The translations under genes and the position numbers were made by a program. The notes below the pieces were generated by a model. The model did no database searches. It was not told the DNA's origin and worked only from the letters and a program-made list of their open reading frames with translations. Below, in pieces: positions 1,002 to 15,311 of a stretch of DNA of 36,077 nt. This DNA comes from an uncultured Melioribacter sp. (GTDB taxonomy: Bacteria > Bacteroidota > Ignavibacteria > Ignavibacteriales > Melioribacteraceae). The stretch is from assembly GCA_964510325.1 (NCBI GenBank), contig CAZEBL010000001.1, positions 1-36,077 of the forward strand, in the 5' to 3' direction. Numbering within the stretch: position 1 is the first letter of the stretch; every line of letters begins with the position of its first letter.

Positions 1002-4000
1002 CTATTCAAATGCTTTCTTAATAATTTCATCTTGAGATGCCTGGAATTTCTTAGAAGAACCACTTGCAGGACTCGGACTTTCCTGACGTCCAACGAACTC
1101 TAATTTCAATTTATCGGGAATTATTTTAATCAACCTTGGAAAAAGAAAATTCCACGCCCCCATGTTTTGCGGTTCTTCCTGGACCCACTTTACTGTTTTT
1201 GCATTTGGATATGTTTGTAATAATTTACTCATTAGTTCGGAATTAAATGGATAGTACTGTTCAATCCTAATTATTGCTTTATTATCAATTTTATTTATTA
1301 CTCTAAAGTTGTTCAGTTCATAATATATTTTCCCGCTTGTAAGGATCACATTTGTAACTTTAGATTTATCCATAGTAATATCATCAATAATTTCTTCAAA
1401 CTTTCCTTCAGTAAAATCATTTATAGGCGACCTTGCAGCGGGTAATCGTAATAAACTCTTAGGTGTTAACACAACAAGTGGTTTTTCATAAGCTCCGTTT
1501 ACTTCGGATAACTTTTTATGCATCTGTCTTCTGAGTAAATGAAAATACTGTGCAGGTGTAGTTGGGTTGCATACATACATATTATTTTCTGCACATAGTA
1601 TAAGAAATCTTTCTAACCGTGCACTACTATGTTCCGGACCCTGTCCCTCTTGTCCGTGAGGAAGTAACATTACAAGATTATTCGGTAGTTGCCATTTAGT
1701 GTAAGAGCTTACTATAAAATTATCTATGATAACCTGTGCACTATTAGCAAAATCGCCGAATTGTGCTTCCCAGATTACTAAAGCGAGCGGATCAGAAATG
1801 CTGTAACCGAATTCAAATCCCAATACTGCAGCTTCTGAAAGTAAGCTATCGAGCGCTTCAATTTTTGCCTGACCTTCTTCAATAAAATTATGAGGCAGAA
1901 CTTCTTCCTCGGTATTCATGTCTGTAAATATCAAATGCCTTTGACTGAATGTACCGCGAGCACTATCCTGACCGCTAAGTCTAACCGGGCGTTTTTCAAT
2001 TAAAAGAGTACCGAATGCAAGAGCTTCTGCAAAAGCCCAATCAATTTGTGTATTACCTGTTAATAATTCTTTTCGCTTGGCAATATGCTTACTTAGTTTA
2101 GGATTTAGTGAAAAACTATGAGGGAATTGAATAATCCCTTTTACAACTTTCTTAAGCTCATCAATAGATACTTTAGTTTCTGCTTTTCGATCGAAATTGT
2201 CATAATAATCTGTGGAATATGCCAAAGGTCTATCCGGTTTAAATTTTTCTGATTTCTTTTTAGTATCCTTAAGTGCTTTTTCAAGTAAATCGTATATATA
2301 ATTATCAAGAGAATCTATTTCAGCTTTATCCATAATCTTAGATTTAACAAGTCTCTCCTGGTAAATCTCTTTTACTGATGGATGCTCTTTGATTTTTTTG
2401 TACATAAGTGGTTGAGTATAAACCGGATCATCACCTTCGTTATGCCCATGCCTTCTATATCCAAATAGATCAATTACCACATCCTTGTTAAATTTTTGGC
2501 GGTATTCAAATGCAAGCTGTGTAACCCATAGTGATGCTTCGGGGTCATCACCATTAACATGAAAGATTGGCGACTGAACCATTTTAGCAACATCGGTTGC
2601 ATAAGGTGAGGAACGTGCATCTTCAGGTGGTGTTGTAAATCCAATCTGATTATTTACAATAATGTGAATCGTTCCACCGGTGCTATAACCTTTTAATTGT
2701 GATAGGTTAAGAGTTTCTGCAACAACACCCTGTCCAGCAAATGCAGCATCCCCGTGAATAAGAACAGGAACATATTGATTCTTCTCAGTGTCGTTATTTC
2801 TTGTTTGTTTTGCACGGATTATTCCTTCAACTACAGGATTAACCCACTCGAGATGGGAAGGATTAGAGGCAACAGAAACTTTAATTTCATTACCACTGAA
2901 GGTTTTGTAATTACCGCTTGCACCGAGATGATATTTAACATCACCCGTTCCTTGCGGGCTTTCGGGATCCATTTCATCTTCAAATTCAGAAAATATATTC
3001 GTATAACTTTTACCGATGATATTTGATAATACATTCAATCTGCCACGATGAGCCATTCCTAAAAACACTTCTTTAACATTCTGCTCGCTTGCTAAATTTA
3101 ATAAGTAGTCCAGCACAGGTATTAAAGTCTCTGAACCTTCAAGAGAAAAACGTTTATGACCAATAAATTTTGTATGAAGAAAATGTTCAAATGCTTCAGC
3201 TACAATCAGTTTTTGCATTATTCTTTTTTTGGTCTCATTACTATATCCCGGTTTATTTCTAATCGGTTCCATTCTTTGTTGAAGCCAGAGTTTTTCTTCG
3301 GGATTCTGTATGTGCATATACTCCACACCAATCTTTTCGCAATAAGTCTGATGAAGAACATCCAGAATCTGTCGTAAAGTACCTGTCTGCATTCCCTGTA
3401 AATTACCGGTGATGAAATGACGATCATAATCCCAGATTGTAAATCCATGGTTTGCAGGATCCAATTCCTGGTGAAATGATTTAGGTGGACTGAGAGGATT
3501 CAAATCTGCAATTAAATGCCCGCGTACTCTGAACATGTTGATAAGTAATACAATTCGTGCTTGCTTCTCAATCTCTTCAATGTTGTCGATTTTTGAAAAT
3601 CTTTTTGAAAGCGTATCGAGGTCCCATCCAACTGCTTTCTGCGGAATTTTTAGATCTTCAAATAATTTACTATAGAAATTATTTTCACCAAGTAAAAGGT
3701 TATCAATTGTTGCAAGAAATGCGCCCGATTCTGCACCTTGAATTATTCGGTGATCATAAGTACTGGTAATATTCATAACCTTACCGATACCAAGTGATGC
3801 TAATGCAGAAGGATGCATCGCTTTGAATTCCGCCGGGTAATCAATTGCACCAACTGCTATGATGCAACCTTGACCGGTCATTAATCTGGGTGTTGAAGAA
3901 ATTGTACCGATACCACCAGGATTAGTTAAAGTAATAGTGGAGTTTTGAAAATCTGCCGGTTCTAATCTACCACTCTTTGCTTTGTCGATTAATTCATCAT

Positions 4001-4649
4001 AGGCATAAAGGAACTGATCAAAGTCCATCGTCTCGGCTCGTTTAATATTAGGAACTATTAAGGAACGCGTTCCGTCTTTTCGTTCAATATCAACAGCAAT
4101 ACCAAGATTTATATATGGTTTCTTAATTAAACTAGATTTTCCTTTAACAACTCCGAAAGAATTATTCATATTAGGAAATTCTTTAAGAGCTTGAACAAGC
4201 GAGTATGCAATTAAATGTGTGAAAGAAATTTTTCTTCCACCAGTTCTCTTTAAGTGTTGATTGATAATAATTCTATTTTCTTCAAGAAGCTTTACGGAAA
4301 TTGTCCGCAATGATGTTGCAGTCGGTATTGTTAAACTACCGGTCATGTTCTCTATTATTTTTGCGCCAACGCCCACAATAGGGATAATCTCATCATCGGG
4401 GGATATATCAAACAAATCCGATACAACGGGAGAAGTGATTTCTTTTTTGGTTGAAGCGGATTTTTCCGGTTTAATATGGTTATCCGATTTATTGCTGCCG
4501 GTTAATTGGTCGAAATAATTTTTCCAGTAATCTGAAACTGAATTATGATCTTCCAGATATTTTTCGAGTAAGTCGGATACAAATCCAAAGTTATACCCGA
4601 AGTGGTTAAATAATTCTTTGTGATATTTAGTGATGTCCATATTTCTCAT
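1002..4649 (-). CDS. kgd: 2-oxoglutarate dehydrogenase E1 component fused to an N-terminal E2-like acyltransferase domain (Kgd/OdhA architecture), 1215 aa
   Basis: The length is about 280 aa longer than a classical SucA. Residues ~95-325 carry a 2-oxoacid dehydrogenase acyltransferase core (TLTNPGGIGT, STYDHRIIQGAESGAFL). The rest is a typical E1o: GMAHRGRLNVL, HGDAAFAGQGVV, GYRRHGHNEGDDP, LLPHGQEGQGPEHSS. No lipoyl domain is recognisable. Confidence 0.9.
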   Translation of the reverse strand: MRNMDITKYHKELFNHFGYNFGFVSDLLEKYLEDHNSVSDYWKNYFDQLTGSNKSDNHIKPEKSASTKKEITSPVVSDLFDISPDDEIIPIVGVGAKIIENMTGSLTIPTATSLRTISVKLLEENRIIINQHLKRTGGRKISFTHLIAYSLVQALKEFPNMNNSFGVVKGKSSLIKKPYINLGIAVDIERKDGTRSLIVPNIKRAETMDFDQFLYAYDELIDKAKSGRLEPADFQNSTITLTNPGGIGTISSTPRLMTGQGCIIAVGAIDYPAEFKAMHPSALASLGIGKVMNITSTYDHRIIQGAESGAFLATIDNLLLGENNFYSKLFEDLKIPQKAVGWDLDTLSKRFSKIDNIEEIEKQARIVLLINMFRVRGHLIADLNPLSPPKSFHQELDPANHGFTIWDYDRHFITGNLQGMQTGTLRQILDVLHQTYCEKIGVEYMHIQNPEEKLWLQQRMEPIRNKPGYSNETKKRIMQKLIVAEAFEHFLHTKFIGHKRFSLEGSETLIPVLDYLLNLASEQNVKEVFLGMAHRGRLNVLSNIIGKSYTNIFSEFEDEMDPESPQGTGDVKYHLGASGNYKTFSGNEIKVSVASNPSHLEWVNPVVEGIIRAKQTRNNDTEKNQYVPVLIHGDAAFAGQGVVAETLNLSQLKGYSTGGTIHIIVNNQIGFTTPPEDARSSPYATDVAKMVQSPIFHVNGDDPEASLWVTQLAFEYRQKFNKDVVIDLFGYRRHGHNEGDDPVYTQPLMYKKIKEHPSVKEIYQERLVKSKIMDKAEIDSLDNYIYDLLEKALKDTKKKSEKFKPDRPLAYSTDYYDNFDRKAETKVSIDELKKVVKGIIQFPHSFSLNPKLSKHIAKRKELLTGNTQIDWAFAEALAFGTLLIEKRPVRLSGQDSARGTFSQRHLIFTDMNTEEEVLPHNFIEEGQAKIEALDSLLSEAAVLGFEFGYSISDPLALVIWEAQFGDFANSAQVIIDNFIVSSYTKWQLPNNLVMLLPHGQEGQGPEHSSARLERFLILCAENNMYVCNPTTPAQYFHLLRRQMHKKLSEVNGAYEKPLVVLTPKSLLRLPAARSPINDFTEGKFEEIIDDITMDKSKVTNVILTSGKIYYELNNFRVINKIDNKAIIRIEQYYPFNSELMSKLLQTYPNAKTVKWVQEEPQNMGAWNFLFPRLIKIIPDKLKLEFVGRQESPSPASGSSKKFQASQDEIIKKAFE

Positions 4650-4839: not shown

Positions 4840-5007
4840 ATGAAAGCAGAGTGCCCGGTTTGTGGTGCTATGATTGATTTACCTGAAGGTACTGTTGTAG
4901 GAGAACTAATAGAGTGTCCCGATTGCGGAACAGAGTTAGAAGTTGAATCTCTTAATCCTCCTACAGTAAAAGAAGCTCCACAAGAAGAAGAAGACTGGGG
5001 TGAATAG
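4840..5007 (+). CDS. lysW: LysW amino-group carrier protein (alpha-aminoadipate/glutamate carrier), 55 aa; absent from the supplied ORF track
   Basis: My own translation is MKAECPVCGAMIDLPEGTVVGELIECPDCGTELEVESLNPPTVKEAPQEEEDWGE. It has two CxxC pairs (zinc ribbon) and an acidic tail ending EDWGE, the hallmark LysW C-terminus. A GGAG sits ~11 nt upstream of the ATG. The gene lies directly upstream of lysX/Y/Z/J homologues. Confidence 0.9.
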   Translation: MKAECPVCGAMIDLPEGTVVGELIECPDCGTELEVESLNPPTVKEAPQEEEDWGE

Positions 5008-6165
5008 TTGATCTGGGTTTTAGATTCAACATTAAGAGAAGGCGAACAAACCCCGGGAGTCTACTTCGATAAGCACATTAAACTTGCAATTGCATCTCTA
5101 CTGGATGAAATCGGTGTTAATATAATTGAAGCCGGTCATCCCATGGTTACCCCGGAAATCCATGCAGCAGTAAAATCAATCGCACAAAAAGGATTTAAAT
5201 CAATTGTTGGCGCTCATTCCCGGTCATTAAAGAATGATGTAGATCTCGCTTTAGAATGTGGTGTCGGTTTTATCGGAATATTCTATTGTGTCTCCGATGA
5301 AAGACTGGCTAATGTTTTCAAAAAGGATCTTGATGATGCAATAAAGCAGATTACCGATGTAATTAAATATGCAAAAAATATAAAACCCGATCTGTTAATT
5401 AGATATACACCTGAAGATACTGTCCGTTCACAATTCGAAAATGTTGTTAAAGCTGCCGCTGCTGCTGTTGAAGCCGGAGCTGATATTATTAGTGTAGCAG
5501 ATACTACCGGTTATATGGTTCCGGGAACCGACCGGAGTATGTATGATTATATTTCGAAACTTAAAGATGATTTGGCACAACGTAAGCTATTCCCTAAGAT
5601 CGCAGTTCACTGTCATAACGATAGAGGTTTTGCACTTGCAAATGCGCTTGATGCTTACCGTGCCGGTGTTGATATTATTGATGCCGCCGCATTAGGACTT
5701 GGTGAAAGAGCCGGAATAGTTGATCTTGCCCAATTATTAGTTACACTAACAGTTGATTATAATGAGAACCGATGGAACCTTAAAAAGATTACTGAGCTAT
5801 ATGATCTGGTAAGTAAACATTCGGGGATCCCGATACCGGCTAATTATCCAATAACAGGAAAAAATGCTTTTACACATTGTGCCGGCGTTCATACTCATGC
5901 TGCTTCAATTAATCCAATGCACTACGAAAGTCTGCATCCTGATATCTTAGGACGAGCAAGAAGTTTTGCACTCGATCATATGTCGGGAATTGCATCTCTT
6001 AGATATGCACTCAATTTAATTGATGAAAATAGTTTAGATGATGATCATCAACAATCTGTTCTTGCCGAAGTAAAAGCAGTTGGACAGCGGGGAAGAACTG
6101 TTGACCTTGAAGAATTGAAACATATCGTTGATGCTGTTAAGCACCACAAGACCTACGCTAAATAG
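5008..6165 (+). CDS. Homocitrate synthase-like (HMGL/DRE-TIM family, short form without the LeuA regulatory domain)
   Basis: The N-terminus reads LDSTLREGEQTPGV. Metal-site motifs of the IPMS/HCS family are present: HCHNDRGFALANAL and HCAGVHTH. The 385-aa length resembles Thermus/archaeal HCS. The TTG start abuts the lysW stop (TAG 5005-5007). Specificity (homocitrate versus citramalate/IPM) cannot be proven from sequence. Confidence 0.7.
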   Translation: MIWVLDSTLREGEQTPGVYFDKHIKLAIASLLDEIGVNIIEAGHPMVTPEIHAAVKSIAQKGFKSIVGAHSRSLKNDVDLALECGVGFIGIFYCVSDERLANVFKKDLDDAIKQITDVIKYAKNIKPDLLIRYTPEDTVRSQFENVVKAAAAAVEAGADIISVADTTGYMVPGTDRSMYDYISKLKDDLAQRKLFPKIAVHCHNDRGFALANALDAYRAGVDIIDAAALGLGERAGIVDLAQLLVTLTVDYNENRWNLKKITELYDLVSKHSGIPIPANYPITGKNAFTHCAGVHTHAASINPMHYESLHPDILGRARSFALDHMSGIASLRYALNLIDENSLDDDHQQSVLAEVKAVGQRGRTVDLEELKHIVDAVKHHKTYAK

Positions 6166-6199
6166 AATCTTTTTTAATAGAACCCCGGAGGATTTTTAA

Positions 6200-7045
6200 A
6201 TGAAAATAGGATTACTTCATTCATTGCTACGTAAAGATGAAAAATTTTTGATGGATGAATTTGCTAAAATCAAAGGTGTTGAACTCGTTCTTATCGATGA
6301 CCGTGAAATTACATTTAATTTAGGGAAGGATAAGTTTGATGTTGATGTGCTTGTTGAGAGATGTATAAATCACTCCCGCGCTTTGCACGGATTAAAACTT
6401 TTCGAAGCAGCCGGAGTAAGATGTGTTAACTCTTACAACGTTGCGACAATCTGCGGTGATAAACTCCTAACGTCAGTAGCCCTTGCGGAAAATAAAGTTC
6501 CTCAACCAGAAGTAAGAGTTGCATTTACAGAAGAATCGGCTCTTAAAGCAATTGAAGAGATGGGTTACCCGGTTGTTCTTAAACCGGCAGTTGGATCTTG
6601 GGGAAGACTTCTATCAAAAATTAACGACAAAGATGCAGCCGAAGCTATTCTTGAGCATAAAACGGTCCTTGGTTCATATCATCATTCCATTTTTTATATT
6701 CAGAAATATGTAGAGAAGAAAGGGAAGGATATCAGAAGTTTTGTTGTAGGTGATAAGTGTATTGCTGCTATTTATAGAACTTCTCCTCACTGGATTACAA
6801 ATACTGCACGCGGCGGTGTTGCTACTAACTGTCCTATAACAGAAGAGTTGAATGATATTTCCGTGCGTGCTGCTAAAGCTGTTGGTGGAGGAATAGTTGC
6901 TATAGATGTTTTTGAAACTGAGAAGGGATTAATGGTTAACGAAGTAAATTATACAATGGAGTATAAGAACAGTATTACTACAACCGGCGTAAATATTCCC
7001 CAGAAAATGGTTGAATATATATTGCAAGTGGCTGAAGGTAAGTAA
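6200..7045 (+). CDS. lysX: RimK-family ATP-grasp ligase, LysX/ArgX type (LysW--alpha-aminoadipate or --glutamate ligase)
   Basis: Long blocks look, from my memory, near-identical in pattern to Thermus LysX (not verifiable here): [72 protein letters not shown] lies upstream. Confidence 0.88.
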
Positions 7046-8091
7046 TGGAAAAAATAAAAGTATCAATTGTTGGCGGATCGGGGTATACAGGCGGGGAATT
7101 GCTTCGTTTGCTTCTTTTCCATCCTTATGTAGAAGTTGTTGAAGTTACTTCTGAAAGTTATACGGGAAAATTTGTTCATAAAATCCATCCTAACTTAAGA
7201 AAATCTACAACGCTAAAATTTATTTCTGCATCCGAGTTACAACCGTGTGATCTTCTCTTTTTATGTCTTCCTCATAATAGTTCGCAAAATCAAATTGATA
7301 GATTCAAAAATTTAGCTCCGAGGATTATAGATCTTAGTGCAGACTTCAGATTAAAAAGTGAATCGGAATATGAAAAATGGTATGGACATAAACATGCAAG
7401 ACCGGAATTGTTCAATGAATTTGTGTACGGGATTCCAGAACTGCACCGCGAAGAAATGAAAAATGCAAAATACATTTCAAGTGCAGGTTGTAATGCAACT
7501 GCAAGTATTCTTGGTCTCTATCCGCTCTTTAAAAATGATCTTGTTGAAGAAGATAGAACAGTAATAGAAGTAAAAGCTGGAAGCAGCGAAGGGGGCAATA
7601 AAGTTAATGAAGGTTCACATCATCCTGAGCGTGCCGGTGTAGTCAGATCTTACATGCCTACGCAGCATAGACACACTGTGGAAATATTACAGGAACTTTC
7701 ATTTGGTAAAAAAATAAATGTCCATTTTTCTGCTACTGCTATTGATATTGTCCGCGGTTTACTTGCAACATGCCATGTTTTCTTAAAGAAGGATCTTCAG
7801 GAAAAAGAGATCTGGAAAATTTATCGTGAAGCTTATGGTAATGAACCTTTTATTAGAATTGTAAAAGAAAGCGAAGGAATATACCGATTCCCGGAACCGA
7901 AATTATTAAGCGGTACAAATTATTGCGATATCGGTTTTAAGAAAGATGAATTTTCAAATCGGCTTGTTGTAATTAGTGCAATTGATAATTTAATGAAAGG
8001 TGCTGCTGGTCAGGCACTTCAGGCGTTTAATTTAATGTATGGATTTGATGAAAGAACCGGACTCGAATTCCCGGGATTACATCCAATTTAA
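7045..8091 (+). CDS. lysY: LysW-aminoadipyl/glutamyl-phosphate reductase (ArgC/LysY family)
   Basis: It has an N-terminal Rossmann motif (VSIVGGSGYTGGELLRLL), an active-site Cys context (SSAGCNATA) and a C-terminal DNLMKGAAGQALQ. The start overlaps the lysX stop (TAATG). Confidence 0.88.
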   Translation: MEKIKVSIVGGSGYTGGELLRLLLFHPYVEVVEVTSESYTGKFVHKIHPNLRKSTTLKFISASELQPCDLLFLCLPHNSSQNQIDRFKNLAPRIIDLSADFRLKSESEYEKWYGHKHARPELFNEFVYGIPELHREEMKNAKYISSAGCNATASILGLYPLFKNDLVEEDRTVIEVKAGSSEGGNKVNEGSHHPERAGVVRSYMPTQHRHTVEILQELSFGKKINVHFSATAIDIVRGLLATCHVFLKKDLQEKEIWKIYREAYGNEPFIRIVKESEGIYRFPEPKLLSGTNYCDIGFKKDEFSNRLVVISAIDNLMKGAAGQALQAFNLMYGFDERTGLEFPGLHPI

Positions 8092-8145
8092 TCCTTGCTA
8101 ATGATCTTATTCTTGATAATTGTCTAATAAGGAATATTGAATTAA

Positions 8146-8790
8146 ATGTGCCGACTACTATATGTTGACTCGAAAACCGAGTTTGATACTTCTGATTACT
8201 TAATTAGGTTTTCGGAGATTTCTAAAAATAGCCGTGAGTTTCAGGGACATGGATGGGGTTGCGCTTATTTCCAGAATGGTAAATGGAATTTTTATAAAAA
8301 TGTTAAACCTATCTGGGAAGACGACCTCTCCACATTCGGTAATTCAAAACGATTGATAGCACATGCCAGAAGTGCATTTAAGGATGAAGGAATTGTTGTT
8401 GAAAACAACATGCCTTTCTATGATGATAAATACATTTTTGTTTTTAATGGAGAACTGCGTGGTGTAAAAATTAAAGAAGAAGGAAGAATTGGTGCAGAAA
8501 AAATTTTTAATTATTTAAAAAGATTTGATGACCAAGGAATTGGTGAAGGGATTAAAAAGGGGACTGAAATAATTAAAAAAAGATCGGCTTATATAAGAGC
8601 AATGAATTTGATTATTGCAAATGATAAAGCAGCTTATATTTATTCTCACTTCAATGAAGATCCGGAATATTTTACAATGCATATCAAAAAATCGGATAAT
8701 GTATTTGTTGTCTGTTCCGATCCGTTCATTGGTGAACTTAATTGGAATCCAATTGAAAATAATTCGTTACTGGAGATTAAATGTATCTAA
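8146..8790 (+). CDS. Class-II glutamine amidotransferase-like Ntn (N-terminal Cys) amidohydrolase, YafJ/EgtC-like, stand-alone 214 aa
   Basis: It starts MCRLL, so Cys2 is the putative nucleophile after Met removal. Blocks follow the GATase class-II pattern: GHGWG, AHARSAF..VENNMPF, FNGEL. There is no fused synthase domain. The 3' end overlaps lysZ by 10 nt, so it is part of the operon. Confidence 0.65.
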   Translation: MCRLLYVDSKTEFDTSDYLIRFSEISKNSREFQGHGWGCAYFQNGKWNFYKNVKPIWEDDLSTFGNSKRLIAHARSAFKDEGIVVENNMPFYDDKYIFVFNGELRGVKIKEEGRIGAEKIFNYLKRFDDQGIGEGIKKGTEIIKKRSAYIRAMNLIIANDKAAYIYSHFNEDPEYFTMHIKKSDNVFVVCSDPFIGELNWNPIENNSLLEIKCI

Positions 8791-9572
8791 TTAAAATCGG
8801 CGGCGGTAAAGGAATTAATCTAAAAGGAGTAATTTCGGATCTTGCTACGTTGAATGAAAAAATAATTATTGTTCACGGTGCAAATGCCGCAAGAGATGAA
8901 TTAGCCAATAAAATTGGTTTTCATAAGAAAGTTGTAACTTCACTCTCAGGTTACGATTCGGTTCTTAGCGATGAAACTACTATTGATCTTATGATGATGA
9001 CGTATGCCGGATTAAAGAATAAACGTATTGTTGAACTCTGTCAACAGCACGGTATCAATGCAGTTGGTTTAACCGGACTCGATGGAAAAACTATTCAAGG
9101 AAAACGTAATAGTGGAATAAAGGTAAGAGAAGGGGGTAAAACACTTTTACTAAGAGACTTTTCCGGTAAACCGAAATCAATTAATAAAGATCTTCTTAAT
9201 CTGCTGCTCGATAACAGTTATACCCCTGTATTAAGTGTTCCGCTCATAGACGAAAATAATTTTGCAATTAATTCAGAAAATGACGACATACTTGCATTAC
9301 TTCAATCTGAATTTAAAGCAGACAAAGTAATTTCTCTTATAGAAGAACAAGGACTTCTATTGGATAAGAACGATCCTTCATCACTTGTTTCTAATCTATC
9401 GAAAGAAGAACTTGAAGCAATGGAACAGAAAGTTGATGGGAGAATGAAAAGAAAAATCCTTGCATTAAGAAAATTATTTGAATCGGGTGATACTACAGTA
9501 ATTTTAGGCGATGGTAGAACCGAACACCCGATTATTGATGCACTAAATGGAAAGGGGACCATAATAAAATGA
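8781..9572 (+). CDS. lysZ: LysW-aminoadipate/glutamate kinase (ArgB/LysZ amino-acid kinase family)
   Basis: The amino-acid kinase fold pattern is present: IKIGGGKG...IIIVHGANAARDE, GLTGLDG, INSENDDILA. The 263-aa size and operon position fit. Confidence 0.85.
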   Translation: MYLIKIGGGKGINLKGVISDLATLNEKIIIVHGANAARDELANKIGFHKKVVTSLSGYDSVLSDETTIDLMMMTYAGLKNKRIVELCQQHGINAVGLTGLDGKTIQGKRNSGIKVREGGKTLLLRDFSGKPKSINKDLLNLLLDNSYTPVLSVPLIDENNFAINSENDDILALLQSEFKADKVISLIEEQGLLLDKNDPSSLVSNLSKEELEAMEQKVDGRMKRKILALRKLFESGDTTVILGDGRTEHPIIDALNGKGTIIK

Positions 9573-10723
9573 AAGATTACAAATCATTAATTGAACAATA
9601 CGAAGTTGATGTTTACCCTCGACGTGATGTTGTACTTGTTAAAGGTAAAGATGCTCATGTGTGGGATGACAAAGGGAATGAATACATCGATATGGCTGCT
9701 GGAATTTCTGTTGCTAATATTGGCCATGCTAACAATTATGTAGTAGAAGCTATTTCCAGGCAATCTGAAACACTTATTACTTGTCCAAATACTTTTTATA
9801 ATGATGCAAAAGCAATCTTTTTAGAAAAGTTATTTAGTGTTGTTCCTAAGAATCTTACACGTGCATTTTTAACTAACAGCGGAACCGAAGCAATTGAAGC
9901 GGCAATAAAATTTGCACGCTTGAATACAAAGAAAACTAAAATTATTGCTGCAATGAAAGGTTTCCATGGAAGAACATACGGCGCATTAAGTGCAACTTAC
10001 AAGAAAGAATATCGTGATGGTTTTGAACCTCTTGTACCAGGATTCGATTTTGTTCCATATAATAATTTCGAAAAAATTGTTCAATTAGCAGATGATGATA
10101 CTGCTGCAATTATTCTTGAACCAATTCAAGGTGAAGGTGGAATTAATATTGGTCAAATTGAATTTTTTCAGAAAGTAAGGCAACTCTGTAATGAAAAAAA
10201 CATTCTTCTTATAATTGATGAAATTCAAACCGGTTTCTGCCGAACGGGCAAATTATTTGCAATTGAACATCTTGGTATTGAAGCTGATATGATTACGCTT
10301 GCTAAATCAATTGCTGGCGGTTTTCCGATGGGCGCACTTTTATGTTCCGATAAAATTACTGTCGAAAAAAGTAAGCACGGTTCCACATTTGGCGGTAATC
10401 CGTTGGCATGTGCCGCCGGAACTGCATCAATCGATTTTATGATTGAAACAAAATTATGGGAACAAGCTGAGGCAAAAGGTAAGTATTTCAAAGCTAAACT
10501 GGAAAACCTTTCACTTTCTAAAGTCCGCGAAATCAGAATAGTCGGATTAATGATTGGAATCGAATTAAAAGAAAAAGTTCAGCCGTATCTGGAAGAATTG
10601 TTGAAAAGAAAAATTGTTGTATTACCGGCTGGAACTACTGTACTTAGAATGCTTCCGCCTCTTGTAATAAGCTACGAGGACTTAGATAAAGTAGCAAAGG
10701 AATTAGAAGACCTATTAAAGTAA
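9569..10723 (+). CDS. lysJ: Class-III PLP aminotransferase (ArgD/LysJ type)
   Basis: Motifs: SGTEAIEAAIKFAR, GFHGRTYGALSAT, LIIDEIQTGFCRTGKLFA, TLAKSIAGGFP (PLP lysine context), STFGGNPLACAA. The start overlaps the lysZ stop (ATGA). Confidence 0.88.
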   Translation: MKDYKSLIEQYEVDVYPRRDVVLVKGKDAHVWDDKGNEYIDMAAGISVANIGHANNYVVEAISRQSETLITCPNTFYNDAKAIFLEKLFSVVPKNLTRAFLTNSGTEAIEAAIKFARLNTKKTKIIAAMKGFHGRTYGALSATYKKEYRDGFEPLVPGFDFVPYNNFEKIVQLADDDTAAIILEPIQGEGGINIGQIEFFQKVRQLCNEKNILLIIDEIQTGFCRTGKLFAIEHLGIEADMITLAKSIAGGFPMGALLCSDKITVEKSKHGSTFGGNPLACAAGTASIDFMIETKLWEQAEAKGKYFKAKLENLSLSKVREIRIVGLMIGIELKEKVQPYLEELLKRKIVVLPAGTTVLRMLPPLVISYEDLDKVAKELEDLLK

Positions 10724-10835
10724 TGTAAAATTAGGGCTAAATACTGCTAAATTAATTTCTTATTGCTAACAAGATTCTTTGACTTTATAACCCCTTTTGG
10801 ATTATTTTTCAATCCAAAATTATTCCGTTATTGAT

Positions 10836-11204
10836 ATGATTCTTAATTACATACCTATTTTTTTAGTCCTATTAGTTGCAGCTGTAATTGCCGGGGCTAT
10901 TGTATATTCTTCAAAGTTATTTGGTCCTTACAGACCTAATAAAATAAAGCAGCTTTCATATGAAAGCGGTAAAAATCCCGTTGGTACAACTCACGAGAGA
11001 ATTTCAATTAAATATTACCTGGTTGCAATGCTCTTTATCATTTTTGATATCGAAGTAATTTATGTTTACCCGTGGGCAGTGCAATTCAAATCCCTCTATG
11101 CCGAATTTGGAATTTTTGCATTTATGCCGATGTTTATATTTTTAGTTGTACTTGAACTTGGATTCCTATACATCTTCGCGAAAGGAGGGCTAAAATGGGA
11201 TTAG
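10836..11204 (+). CDS. nuoA: NADH-quinone oxidoreductase subunit A
   Basis: Three TM segments and the NuoA motifs YESGKNP and [15 protein letters not shown] chose the in-frame ATG at 10836 (122 aa, typical NuoA size) over the ORF-track TTG at 10797. The start is uncertain. Confidence 0.85.
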
Positions 11205-11713
11205 AAGCCAAATTACAACAGGATGGATTTGTAACCACCACAATAGATGCAATTATTGCATGGGCTCGTAAAAGTTCTGTATGGCCTATGCCGATGGGAA
11301 TTTCATGCTGTGCAATAGAAATGATTGCTGCTGCAGATCCTAAATACGATCTTGCTCGTTTCGGATCCGAAGTTATGCGTTTTACTCCGCGTCAGTGCGA
11401 TCTTATGATTGTTGCCGGAACAGTTACTTATAAAATGGCTCAGGTTGTTAGAAGAATTTACGACCAGATGCCTGAACCTAAATGGGTAATTGCTATGGGT
11501 GCATGTACATCCTCAGGCGGAATGTATCGTTCATATTCTGTTGTTCAAGGTATTGATCAATTTCTACCGGTTGACGTTTATACTGCCGGTTGTCCTCCAC
11601 GCCCGGAAAACTTGATTAATGCTGTAATGACAATTCAAAAGAAAATATCCAAAACCAGGGCAAGGGATTTTCAGGATCAACCAATGATTAATCCTGTTAC
11701 AACAAATAACTGA
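11195..11713 (+). CDS. nuoB: NADH-quinone oxidoreductase subunit B
   Basis: Motifs: [24 protein letters not shown] (N2 cluster ligands). Confidence 0.93.
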
Positions 11714-11714
11714 T

Positions 11715-12206
11715 ATGGAAATGAAAGAACTTATTGTAGAAAAATTAAAAAAGAATTTTGGTGAATTTATTCAGGAAATCTCTGATTTCAGAAACGATCT
11801 TTCAATTACCATTGCCAGCAGCAAAATAGTTGAAGTTGCAAAATTCTTAAAAGATGATTCCGAACTTGAATTTGTGATGTGCAAAGATGTTACCGCTATT
11901 GACTGGGCTACACGTAAAAACAGATTTACAGTTGTCTATCATATCTATTCATTTAAGAACAATTATTTTTTACGCTTAAAATCTAATATTGTTGAAAAGA
12001 CGCCGGCTATTGATTCTGTTACATCCATATGGCCAAGTGCTAACTGGTATGAAAGAGAAACATTCGATATGTATGGAATTATTTTTAACAATCATCCCGA
12101 TTTAAGAAGAATGTATATGCCGGAAGGATTTCAGTATCATGCATTAAGAAAAGAATTTCCGGTCTTAGGCATACCCGGATCATTACCATTACCCGAAAAA
12201 ATCTAA
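11715..12206 (+). CDS. nuoC: NADH-quinone oxidoreductase subunit C
   Basis: Motifs: NWYERETFDMYGIIFNNHPDLRR. It is a separate gene, not fused to nuoD. Confidence 0.9.
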   Translation: MEMKELIVEKLKKNFGEFIQEISDFRNDLSITIASSKIVEVAKFLKDDSELEFVMCKDVTAIDWATRKNRFTVVYHIYSFKNNYFLRLKSNIVEKTPAIDSVTSIWPSANWYERETFDMYGIIFNNHPDLRRMYMPEGFQYHALRKEFPVLGIPGSLPLPEKI

Positions 12207-12208
12207 TT

Positions 12209-13459
12209 ATGGAACAGAGATCAGCTATATATTCTGACGAAAAACTTCTCAAGAAACTTCTTGAAGATAAAGATATTACTATTGAAGATGCTCTTGAAAA
12301 TGAGATGGTTATTAACATGGGTCCTCAGCACCCGGCTACTCATGGAGTATTGAGATTAGTTCTAAGATTGGATGGAGAGACAGTTCTTTCTGCAGTTCCT
12401 GAACTCGGTTATCTTCATCGCGGTTATGAAAAGATGGCTGAGGATATGAGTTATATAGAGTTTATTCCACATACAGACCGTCTTGATTACACAGCTACAA
12501 TGTGTAATAACGTTGCCTATGTTCTTGCCGTTGAAAAGCTATTGGGCATTGAAGCTCCAAAGCGTGCTCAATATATCCGGATGATGATTGCAGAATTATC
12601 ACGTCTTGCTGCTCACATGGTTGCAATCGGTACTTATGCAATGGACGTTGGTGCAGTTACAATGGTAATGTGGACTTTCAGAGAACGTGAAAAGATTCAG
12701 GAAATATTCGACCGTCTTGCCGGTGCAAGATTTACAACAAGTTATACAAGAATTGGCGGTGTTGCTTCGGATGCAGATTCCGTAACACTTAAAATGGTTC
12801 GCGATTTTCTGGATCAGTTCCATAACGCACTGGATGAAATGGATAAACTTTTACTAGGTAATAAAATTTTTATTGATCGATTAGATGGTATTGGCGTTCT
12901 TTCTAAAGATGATGCAATTGCTCTTGGTGTAACCGGTCCTAATCTTAGAGCTTCTGGAGTTGCTTATGATGTAAGAAGAGCAAAACCGTACTTGTTCTAC
13001 AATGAAATGGATTTCAATATACCCACTTATACTAACGGGGATTGTTTAGCAAGATACTGGCTGCGAGGTGATGAGGTAAGAGAAAGTGTTAAAATCCTCT
13101 ACCAGATATTGGATAAAATGCCTCAAGGTGAAGTTTTAGCAAACGAACCGAAACACACGCTTGCTCATAAATCTGAGATATATACTAAGATGGAAGAACT
13201 GATTCACGATTTTATGATTATTAATTATGGGATCAATCCACCAGTTGGTGATGTGTTCTTCTCTGCTGAAAATCCGAAAGGGGAATTAGGATTTTATATT
13301 GTAAGTAACGGTTCAGGTCATCCCTGGAAAATGAAAATTAGATCACCTTCATTCTGTAATCTTCAAGCCATTGCTCAACTCTGTAAAGGAGCAATGATTT
13401 CTGATGTAATTGCAATAATAGGAAGTTTAGACCCTGTAATGGGAGAGGCAGATAAATAA
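12209..13459 (+). CDS. nuoD: NADH-quinone oxidoreductase subunit D
   Basis: Motifs: NMGPQHPATHGVLRL, GYLHRGYEK, RIRSPSF-like (KIRSPSFCNLQ). Confidence 0.93.
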   Translation: MEQRSAIYSDEKLLKKLLEDKDITIEDALENEMVINMGPQHPATHGVLRLVLRLDGETVLSAVPELGYLHRGYEKMAEDMSYIEFIPHTDRLDYTATMCNNVAYVLAVEKLLGIEAPKRAQYIRMMIAELSRLAAHMVAIGTYAMDVGAVTMVMWTFREREKIQEIFDRLAGARFTTSYTRIGGVASDADSVTLKMVRDFLDQFHNALDEMDKLLLGNKIFIDRLDGIGVLSKDDAIALGVTGPNLRASGVAYDVRRAKPYLFYNEMDFNIPTYTNGDCLARYWLRGDEVRESVKILYQILDKMPQGEVLANEPKHTLAHKSEIYTKMEELIHDFMIINYGINPPVGDVFFSAENPKGELGFYIVSNGSGHPWKMKIRSPSFCNLQAIAQLCKGAMISDVIAIIGSLDPVMGEADK

Positions 13460-13515
13460 TTTATAATCCCGATCTTGATCATAGTCTTGATCCTGATCTA
13501 AAATGAATATGAACT

Positions 13516-13989
13516 ATGTCATTTAAATTTACCGAAGAAAATTTAGCACGAATTGAGAAAGCCCGTAAGAAATATCCTACTGCATTAGCTGCTGTAATGG
13601 ATACAGTTTACATAGCTCAGGAACAGAATGGATATATAAGCACAGAGGTAATGGAAGAAATTGCTAATGTACTTGGAATAGATAAAGTAAATGTACTTAG
13701 TGTTGTAACATTCTATACAATGTATCATACCAAACCGATGGGTAAATATCATGTTCAGGTCTGCACTAATGTTTCATGTATGCTTCGGGGTTCTTATGAA
13801 ATTTGGGATAGAGTAAGAGAAAAATTAGGTATTGATAATATGCAGGTAAGCGCAGATGGTAAATTTTCTCTTGAAGAAGTTGAATGTATGGGTGCATGCG
13901 GATATGCTCCAATGATTGCAATAAATGAATATTACTATGAAAATCTAACAAAAGAAAAAGTTGAAGAAATTCTGGAATCCTTAAAATAA
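13516..13989 (+). CDS. nuoE: NADH-quinone oxidoreductase subunit E (2Fe-2S)
   Basis: Thioredoxin-like 2Fe-2S pattern: VCTNVSC ... ECMGACGYAPM. Confidence 0.9.
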   Translation: MSFKFTEENLARIEKARKKYPTALAAVMDTVYIAQEQNGYISTEVMEEIANVLGIDKVNVLSVVTFYTMYHTKPMGKYHVQVCTNVSCMLRGSYEIWDRVREKLGIDNMQVSADGKFSLEEVECMGACGYAPMIAINEYYYENLTKEKVEEILESLK

Positions 13990-15311
13990 TGGAAAGAATT
14001 GTTCTACCCGGAATACAAAATCTAAACGAAATAGAAGTATATCTATCCAACGGCGGATTTGAAGCTGCAAAAAAAGCATTCAGCCAAACTCCCGATGATA
14101 TTATTGATCAGGTTAAAAAATCTGGACTTAGAGGTAGAGGAGGAGCTGCATTTCTAACTGGATTGAAATGGAGCTTTATGCCTAAAACAACCAATCTACC
14201 CAAATACCTTTGTATCAATGGGGATGAAAGTGAACCGGGATCCTTTAAGGATAGACAGGTTTTTGAAGATAATCCTTTTCAGCTGATTGAAGGTGCTATA
14301 ATCACATGTTATGCAATTGACGCTAAGGTTGCGTATTTATATATACGTGGTGAATATCATAAGTGGATAAAGCTGATGCAGAAAGCCATAGATACATCGT
14401 ATGAGCGCGGATATCTTGGCGAAAAGATGAAATCTACGTTTGGAATTGACTTTAGTTGCGATTTATTTATTCATAAAGGTGCCGGTGCTTATATATGCGG
14501 GGAAGAATCTTCCCTTATGAATTCTATCGAAGGACATCGTGGTTATCCACGTGTTAAACCGCCTTTCCCGGCTCAAAAAGGTTTATGGGGATGCCCGACA
14601 ACAATTAACAACGTTGAAACAATAACAAATGTCCCTCCGATAATTTCCAAAGGATGGGAATGGTTCTGCAAAATCGGTGCACCAAAACATCCCGGCACAT
14701 TGTTATACGGAATAAGCGGACACGTTAATAAGCCGGGTGTCTATGAATATCCAACAGGTATGCTTTTAACAGAATTAATTTATGATGTAGCCGGCGGAGT
14801 TCCGGGAAATAAAAAAATAAAATGTGTTATACCGGGCGGTTCTTCTATGCCTCCATTAAGAGGTGATAAGTTGGAAGGCGTGCGAATGGATGCAGAGTCA
14901 TTAAAAGAAGCCGGATCCGCTGTTGGTACTGCCGGAATTATGGTTATGGATGAAGATACTAACTTATTAAAAGTGTTAATTCGTATTGCACATTTTTATC
15001 ATCACGAAAGCTGCGGTCAGTGTACACCATGCCGTGAGGGAACCGGATGGATGGAAAAAACGCTTCACAGAATTTTGGAAGGTCATGGCACATCAAAAGA
15101 TCTTGATCTGCTTATTAGTGTTGCAAACAATATAGAAGGAAACACAATCTGTGCATTAGGCGATGCTGCTGCCTGGCCAGTTAAATTTATGATTGAAAGA
15201 TTCAGAGATGAATTTGAAACCTATGTTAAGAAAGATGTTTCTATACCGGTCCCTAATAAAGTACACTCAATGAGGCAAACCGCCGTACCACTCGCAGATT
15301 TACATAAATAA
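13989..15311 (+). CDS. nuoF: NADH-quinone oxidoreductase subunit F (FMN/NADH-binding, 4Fe-4S)
   Basis: Motifs: GLRGRGGAAF, GAGAYICGEESSL, ESCGQCTPCREG. The start overlaps the nuoE stop (TAATG). Confidence 0.93.
   Translation: MERIVLPGIQNLNEIEVYLSNGGFEAAKKAFSQTPDDIIDQVKKSGLRGRGGAAFLTGLKWSFMPKTTNLPKYLCINGDESEPGSFKDRQVFEDNPFQLIEGAIITCYAIDAKVAYLYIRGEYHKWIKLMQKAIDTSYERGYLGEKMKSTFGIDFSCDLFIHKGAGAYICGEESSLMNSIEGHRGYPRVKPPFPAQKGLWGCPTTINNVETITNVPPIISKGWEWFCKIGAPKHPGTLLYGISGHVNKPGVYEYPTGMLLTELIYDVAGGVPGNKKIKCVIPGGSSMPPLRGDKLEGVRMDAESLKEAGSAVGTAGIMVMDEDTNLLKVLIRIAHFYHHESCGQCTPCREGTGWMEKTLHRILEGHGTSKDLDLLISVANNIEGNTICALGDAAAWPVKFMIERFRDEFETYVKKDVSIPVPNKVHSMRQTAVPLADLHK

Follow-up and report, generated by a model that had tools for sequence, protein, structure and literature searches.

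A seven-gene LysW operon in an uncultured Melioribacter, assigned to lysine synthesis, with an Ntn hydrolase as the proposed release enzyme

The DNA analyzed here (the window) is a 36,077-nt stretch from an uncultured Melioribacter sp. (GenBank assembly GCA_964510325.1, contig CAZEBL010000001.1) and makes up contig C1 of an assembly of 3.07 Mb in 403 contigs, with a completeness of 90.6%. At 4840-10723 it contains a LysW-type operon, in which a stand-alone cysteine hydrolase of the N-terminal nucleophile (Ntn) type stands among the genes of carrier-protein lysine synthesis. Among named records, the closest belong to Melioribacter and other Melioribacteraceae, which agrees with an initial annotation that, from the letters alone, had placed the genome near the Fibrobacteres-Chlorobi-Bacteroidetes (FCB) group. 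This annotation had also described seven tightly packed genes, and all seven open reading frames (ORFs) were recovered at their places on the + strand, with spacings of 0, 34, −1, 54, −10 and −4 nt:

4840..5007, + strand: lysW, 55-aa amino-group carrier protein (TIGR01206, 73.3 bits over a cut-off of 53.2; PF21344)
5008..6165, + strand: homocitrate synthase (LysS/HCS)-like protein, 385 aa (best PDB match 6KTQ, an HCS)
6200..7045, + strand: lysX, LysW:alpha-aminoadipate ligase, ATP-grasp (TIGR02144, 355.7 over 275.6)
7045..8091, + strand: lysY, LysW-gamma-aminoadipyl-phosphate reductase, ArgC family (TIGR01850 passed)
8146..8790, + strand: stand-alone Cys-Ntn hydrolase, GATase_4/EgtC fold (PF13230), proposed LysW-gamma-lysine hydrolase
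8781..9572, + strand: lysZ, [LysW]-aminoadipate kinase (NF010659, 244.7 over 223; argB model not passed)
9569..10723, + strand: lysJ, [LysW]-aminoadipate-semialdehyde aminotransferase (argD subfamily TIGR00707 passed)

LysW has two CxxC motifs (zinc ribbon) and an acidic tail with EDWGE at the C-terminus, and LysJ obtained its best E-value from the LysJ model NF042418, yet fell below the cut-off of that model. Promoter and terminator scans remained at chance level. The last step of the route, release of lysine from the carrier, is normally carried out by the M20 metallopeptidase LysK. The initial annotation had called the operon complete-looking, which is inaccurate in one respect: the operon has no lysK, nor did the rest of the genome yield one, and both this absence and the Ntn gene as a likely substitute had been overlooked.

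The absence of LysK was followed in a relatives set of 41 genomes (this genome and 40 relatives; 21 LysX-positive and 20 LysX-negative) and in a second set of 50 other Ntn-carrying genomes. The LysK model TIGR01902, which passes in four control genomes, was not matched over its cut-off in this genome, the 40 relatives or the 50 other genomes, and even at 1e-15 no match was obtained in 10/21 LysX relatives and 13/50 other Ntn genomes. The sole find with Deinococcus LysK in this genome, an M20 gene on contig C239, was rejected as LysK, having 95 bits against a cut-off of 163 and 25% identity to the Deinococcus protein; it adjoins a carbamoyltransferase-like gene. The distribution of the Ntn gene, by comparison, coincides with that of LysX (21 of 41 genomes), and wherever the contig extends far enough, its place is between lysY and lysZ. 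Among the best 80 GTDB Ntn loci, every one flanks lysY or lysZ, and no M20 gene was seen in the fetched DNA; the Ntn loci span Calditrichota, KSB1, Binatia, Deltaproteobacteria, Gammaproteobacteria and one Woesearchaeota-labelled record. Metagenome contigs were sampled by a LysW-tail DNA pattern alone, to avoid selection on the Ntn gene, and where a release gene was visible they carried LysK only in 18 cases (plus one weak), Ntn only in 16 and both in none. Distant Ntn members, with 28-39% identity to the window protein, also lie in LysW operons in six of seven cases, the seventh being at a contig edge, and in several loci the Ntn gene follows lysJ, which is the lysK slot of Deinococcus. Judged on this sequence evidence, the Ntn hydrolase would most likely be a non-orthologous replacement of LysK.

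The predicted structure and active site are consistent with such a role. The protein begins with Met-Cys-Arg and is a stand-alone GATase_4 member, and its AlphaFold (AF2) model, with a predicted local distance difference test score (pLDDT) of 95.9, found its best folds in the EgtC structures 4zfl, 4zfj and 4zfk (template modelling score, TM, 0.74-0.79). EgtC belongs to the Ntn enzymes and hydrolyses a gamma-glutamyl amide, and LysW-gamma-lysine is likewise a gamma-glutamyl amide. In comparison with GlmS, PurF and YafJ, the family keeps Cys2, the Asn101-Gly102 oxyanion hole and Arg75, the counterpart of the alpha-carboxylate-binding Arg (GlmS Arg73-equivalent). In those enzymes, the Asp of a T/S-D-S/T-E motif binds the free alpha-amino group of glutamine; this residue (GlmS Asp123, PurF Asp127 and the YafJ Asp) is matched, in an alignment at low sequence identity, by Gly116 in 215 of the 217 members. 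Gly116 would suit a C-terminal Glu with a free alpha-carboxylate and with its alpha-nitrogen tied up in a peptide bond, and a Gly in place of the alpha-amino-binding Asp argues against a glutaminase. That the protein is a glutaminase subunit supplying ammonia to a pathway step would fit its class II GATase fold and its annotation, but the protein has neither a fused synthase domain nor a synthase neighbour, and no LysW-route step is known to take amide nitrogen, which together with Gly116 makes this explanation highly improbable.

A second line of evidence comes from the carrier itself. LysW ends in Gln in 17 of 81 Ntn loci versus 0 of 20 LysK loci, the LysK sample being small (Fisher p = 0.02, which is overstated since kin are not independent; p = 0.09 for the metagenome-only table). 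When the Gln state was placed on the LysX tree, 13 changes were counted, of which at least five are forced by well-supported branches, all in Ntn lineages. A Gln-ended carrier would not be loadable by the ATP-grasp ligase before deamidation, and this need, together with the occurrence of Gln tails only with Ntn, points to the LysW gamma-amide as a probable target of the Ntn enzyme. We consider the chances about even that the enzyme is dual-purpose, replacing LysK and also deamidating an inactive Gln-ended LysW pro-carrier to the Glu form; such a dual role would explain the repeated rise of Gln-ended LysW, seen only in Ntn operons. LysW of this genome is Glu-ended, and only the release role would be needed here.

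Next, the product of the operon was considered. Thermus LysX has the five-residue signature F182, I192, T203, N258 and S259 (PMC12998189), the last two positions of which are Gly-Phe in Sulfolobus ArgX and Ala-Leu in haloarchaeal ArgX (PMC10433800). The window LysX matches the Thermus signature at all five positions (F181, I191, T202, N257 and S258), and F-I-T-N-S was found in 86 of 87 Ntn-linked LysX. With Asn-Ser at the last two positions, the window LysX has no ArgX-type signature and is of the LysX type; a grouping with ArgX only was what the initial annotation had named as pointing to arginine. Further, contig C6 carries an argC-argJ-argB-argR-argG-argH operon with every gene over its cut-off (argC being 36% identical to lysY), and thus ornithine has its own acetyl cycle. 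Since argD is absent from the C6 operon and Thermus LysJ takes acetylated substrates (PMC12998189), LysJ may be shared with the arginine route as ArgD.

This possible sharing of LysJ, as well as the activity of Thermus LysX on glutamate (<10%) and the promiscuity of LysZ, LysY, LysJ and LysK (PMC12998189), would be compatible with a bifunctional or ornithine-directed operon, as in Thermococcus, Sulfolobus with ArgX and haloarchaea, and the initial annotation had allowed for ornithine or arginine instead of, or besides, lysine. This is very unlikely given a signature of the Thermus type for alpha-aminoadipate (AAA) rather than the ArgX Gly-Phe or haloarchaeal Ala-Leu, argC, argJ, argB, argG and argH over their cut-offs on C6, an HCS located within the operon, and the homoaconitase- and homoisocitrate dehydrogenase (HICDH)-like genes of contig C105 described below. 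Lysine via AAA, rather than arginine, is very probably what the operon makes, and the suggestion of the initial annotation to this effect is supported by the LysX signature, the C105 genes and the separate arg operon. A different arrangement was observed in a metagenome locus (L218:3681-12093), which has two lysW/lysX sets, argG/argH, LysK and a carbamoyltransferase, and which probably holds separate arginine and lysine carriers.

The HCS-like ORF has a TTG start and an LREGEQ motif, and its product is Sulfolobus-like, without a regulatory domain; its top PDB match, 6KTQ, was found at an E-value of 2.4e-69. An orthologue is present in exactly the 21 LysX genomes of the 41. The initial annotation had left it possible that the protein groups with citramalate or isopropylmalate synthases. 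The leucine-operon synthases of relatives proved to be separate ~530-aa proteins with 26-36% identity to the operon HCS, and the two were parted in the tree by a branch of support 100. The assignment as isopropylmalate or citramalate synthase was therefore rejected, as relatives with a leucine operon carry their own enzyme for it. A second HMGL-like synthase was not found in this genome. As a side observation, several relatives carry a leucine operon, and leuA, leuB and leuCD were not found in this genome, which reflects either leucine auxotrophy or an assembly gap.

The steps between homocitrate and 2-oxoadipate are encoded elsewhere. As the initial annotation had stated, homoaconitase and HICDH are not in the window, where neither an aconitase nor a beta-decarboxylating dehydrogenase was seen; a genome-wide check located both on contig C105, as a homoaconitase gene and a gene for an HICDH-like dehydrogenase. 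The region C105:3646-9063 (L016) holds genes for HICDH-like, CstA-like, HD-like and fused homoaconitase proteins. The homoaconitase (C105:7087-9063, 659 aa) scored 886.6 with TIGR00139 over a cut-off of 529.9 and is of the fused type, not LysT/U, and the dehydrogenase (C105:3646-4842, 399 aa) had HICDH as its best NCBIfam models, below cut-off, with PDB matches mixing isocitrate dehydrogenase (IDH) and HICDH. No other homoaconitase-like gene and no other beta-decarboxylating dehydrogenase gene was found in this genome, where a monomeric IDH and an aconitase of the mitochondrial type cover the tricarboxylic acid (TCA) cycle separately. One query for a PrpD-like homocitrate dehydratase gave no match in this genome. 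The hydratase, the dehydrogenase and the small HD-like protein are kept in 36-37 of the 41 genomes of the relatives set, across the order, and the C105 genes probably have an additional, possibly catabolic, role. The AAA pathway logic is supported independently by a Woesearchaeota-labelled locus (L092), in which lysW, the same HCS, LysT/U-like and HICDH-like genes, lysX, lysY, Ntn, lysZ and lysJ form one co-oriented run. This whole AAA operon (L092:2483-12539) encodes proteins 55-75% identical to those of the window, and gene transfer or mis-binning may be involved.

Whether genes of the diaminopimelate (DAP) route coexist was a question raised by the initial annotation. In this genome, dapB, dapF and lysA were not found, and the one dapA-like gene, on contig C102, was rejected as DapA, as it scored 193.6 bits against a cut-off of 206.15, follows a proline dehydrogenase gene and is not accompanied by dapB. 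Across the family, none of 25 Melioribacteraceae genomes yielded dapB. In the relatives set, lysA was over its cut-off in 20/20 LysX-negative versus 5/21 LysX-positive genomes; in these five (G001, G004, G012, G015 and G016; 320-475 bits), none with dapB, it perhaps serves scavenged DAP. Although dapB was not found in the family genomes, nor dapF here, MurE (C8:25957-27195, L282) has a DAP-type SDNPR motif, which makes the cell-wall diamino acid of Melioribacteraceae puzzling.

Taken together, the following route can be proposed. HCS would join 2-oxoglutarate and acetyl-CoA in a condensation; from its product, the HICDH-like dehydrogenase and fused homoaconitase of C105 would lead to 2-oxoadipate, the TCA aconitase perhaps serving the first dehydration; and an aminotransferase would convert 2-oxoadipate to AAA. 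By the chemistry known from Thermus, LysX would join AAA to the gamma-carboxyl of the C-terminal Glu of LysW, and LysZ, LysY and LysJ, whose family identities are established here, would then yield LysW-gamma-lysine. After removal of Met, the N-terminal Cys of the Ntn enzyme would attack the gamma-glutamyl amide in an EgtC-like manner, which would free lysine and restore LysW-Glu. We assign a probability of roughly 0.78 to this whole reading, that is, a LysW-carried AAA lysine operon with the Ntn hydrolase as its release enzyme.

Several observations weigh against this reading. On the LysX tree, a quick version in which some rows have long branches from trimming, two changes suffice to explain LysK versus Ntn, and a single origin may apply; the mutual exclusion of the two genes thus amounts to just one or two independent events. 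In two LysX genomes of the Binatia phylum, with LysW operons at L141 (G406:C346) and L142 (G417:C53), neither LysK nor Ntn was found anywhere in the genome, although the contigs are short and the genomes may be incomplete. The Asp-to-Gly match of the active site comes from the low-identity sequence alignment, not from structural superposition, and the HCS-like protein is below every curated HCS cut-off, TIGR02146 included. In addition, 14 M20-domain matches were counted in this genome of 90.6% completeness, and one of them could release lysine. In that case a housekeeping M20 peptidase would act in release and the Ntn protein would be an accessory that proofreads mis-loaded LysW-Glu/Orn or deamidates Gln-ended LysW, for which one may cite the cross-reactivity of the related Thermus LysK and ArgE (PMC12998189) and the deamidase required by Gln-ended carriers. 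We regard this as unlikely, because the best candidate is the C239 gene with its low score, low identity and carbamoyltransferase-like neighbour, many LysX and Ntn genomes have no TIGR01902 match even at 1e-15 (10/21 and 13/50, as above), an accessory role would not predict the exclusion of LysK, and LysW is Glu-ended in most Ntn operons.

A further point against concerns the upper pathway: about 16 relatives without LysX or operon HCS carry the C105 pair as well, and no link of this pair to the LysW operon can thus be drawn from its distribution. The module could then be catabolic only, running the aminoadipate route in reverse, with the operon obtaining homoisocitrate or AAA otherwise. This is also quite unlikely, since the HCS within the operon requires such enzymes downstream, no other homoaconitase-like or beta-decarboxylating dehydrogenase gene was found in this genome, and the C105 reactions could run in both directions.

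Beside the operon, a 1215-aa 2-oxoglutarate dehydrogenase E1-like protein is encoded at 1002-4649 (− strand), divergent from lysW, with an N-terminal part that appears acyltransferase-like by eye; it would have 2-oxoglutarate in common with HCS. Downstream, a nuoA-F-like run, read by eye from the translations, occupies 10797-15311 (+ strand), beginning 73 nt past lysJ and ending after six genes, the remaining complex I genes not being in the window. Elsewhere, two IMG/VR viral contigs (L147:2066, − strand; L150:1055, + strand) have a LysW-like ORF with CxxC and an EEDWGE tail, and no lysX was seen in the fetched DNA.

If the proposed reading is true, carrier-protein lysine synthesis has, for its last step, a second enzyme of unrelated mechanism, and a pathway gap is closed in Melioribacteraceae, Calditrichota, KSB1, Binatia and further groups, mostly uncultured, which would otherwise be annotated as lysine auxotrophs or as having 'arginine' loci. 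The enzyme would not be rare, as Ntn was the release gene in 16 of the 34 metagenome loci, sampled by the LysW tail, in which one was visible, and cultured carriers of the gene include Rosettibacter primus and Melioribacter sp. OK-6-Me. Within the phylum, LysX was found in 12 of 301 sampled genomes, 11 of them in Melioribacteraceae, which makes the LysW route a family trait and not a general FCB trait. The initial annotation had implied that such an operon is unexpected in the FCB group; the operon is real, but the surprise is modest, as Caldithrix abyssi, of a related lineage, has a published lysWXZYJ + hcs locus (Cabys_3146-3153) with the same gene set, lysK not being listed and other genes scattered (PMC5317091, 2017). 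Neither the Ntn gene nor a missing release step comes up in that paper, and the Calditrichota loci analyzed here have the same gene order as the window operon, Ntn gene included. In the literature searched, outside of which most subscription papers fell, no Ntn hydrolase linked to LysW was found. The LysW/HCS locus itself is therefore not new, and the novel part is most likely the Ntn protein as carrier-release enzyme.

Compared with the lysS-T-U-W-X-Y-Z-J-K genes of Thermus thermophilus and Deinococcus, the EDWGE-tailed LysW, the identical LysX signature, LysY, LysZ, LysJ, a probable HCS and a separate acetyl-type arginine pathway are common to both, whereas the window system has a Cys-Ntn hydrolase and no M20 LysK, a fused fungal-type homoaconitase (TIGR00139) on another contig instead of in-operon LysT/U, and an HCS that resembles that of Sulfolobus (6KTQ) more than that of Thermus. 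With the class II GATases GlmS and PurF, the Ntn protein shares the catalytic Cys, Arg and Asn-Gly, while it lacks the alpha-amino-binding Asp and a synthase partner. EgtC, the gamma-glutamyl-hercynylcysteine sulfoxide hydrolase (TIGR03442), has the same stand-alone Cys-Ntn fold and acts on a gamma-glutamyl amide that is a temporary handle, likewise the case in the proposed Ntn reaction; identity is only ~17%, however, with 47.6 bits against the TIGR03442 cut-off of 218.65, the proposed Ntn substrate is protein-bound, and the context is LysW operons, with no ergothioneine genes in the Ntn loci examined. Finally, the Ntn enzyme would perform the same reaction as LysK ([LysW]-lysine hydrolase, M20, TIGR01902), in some loci from the same slot after lysJ, but with an unrelated fold and a Cys nucleophile in place of metal dependence.

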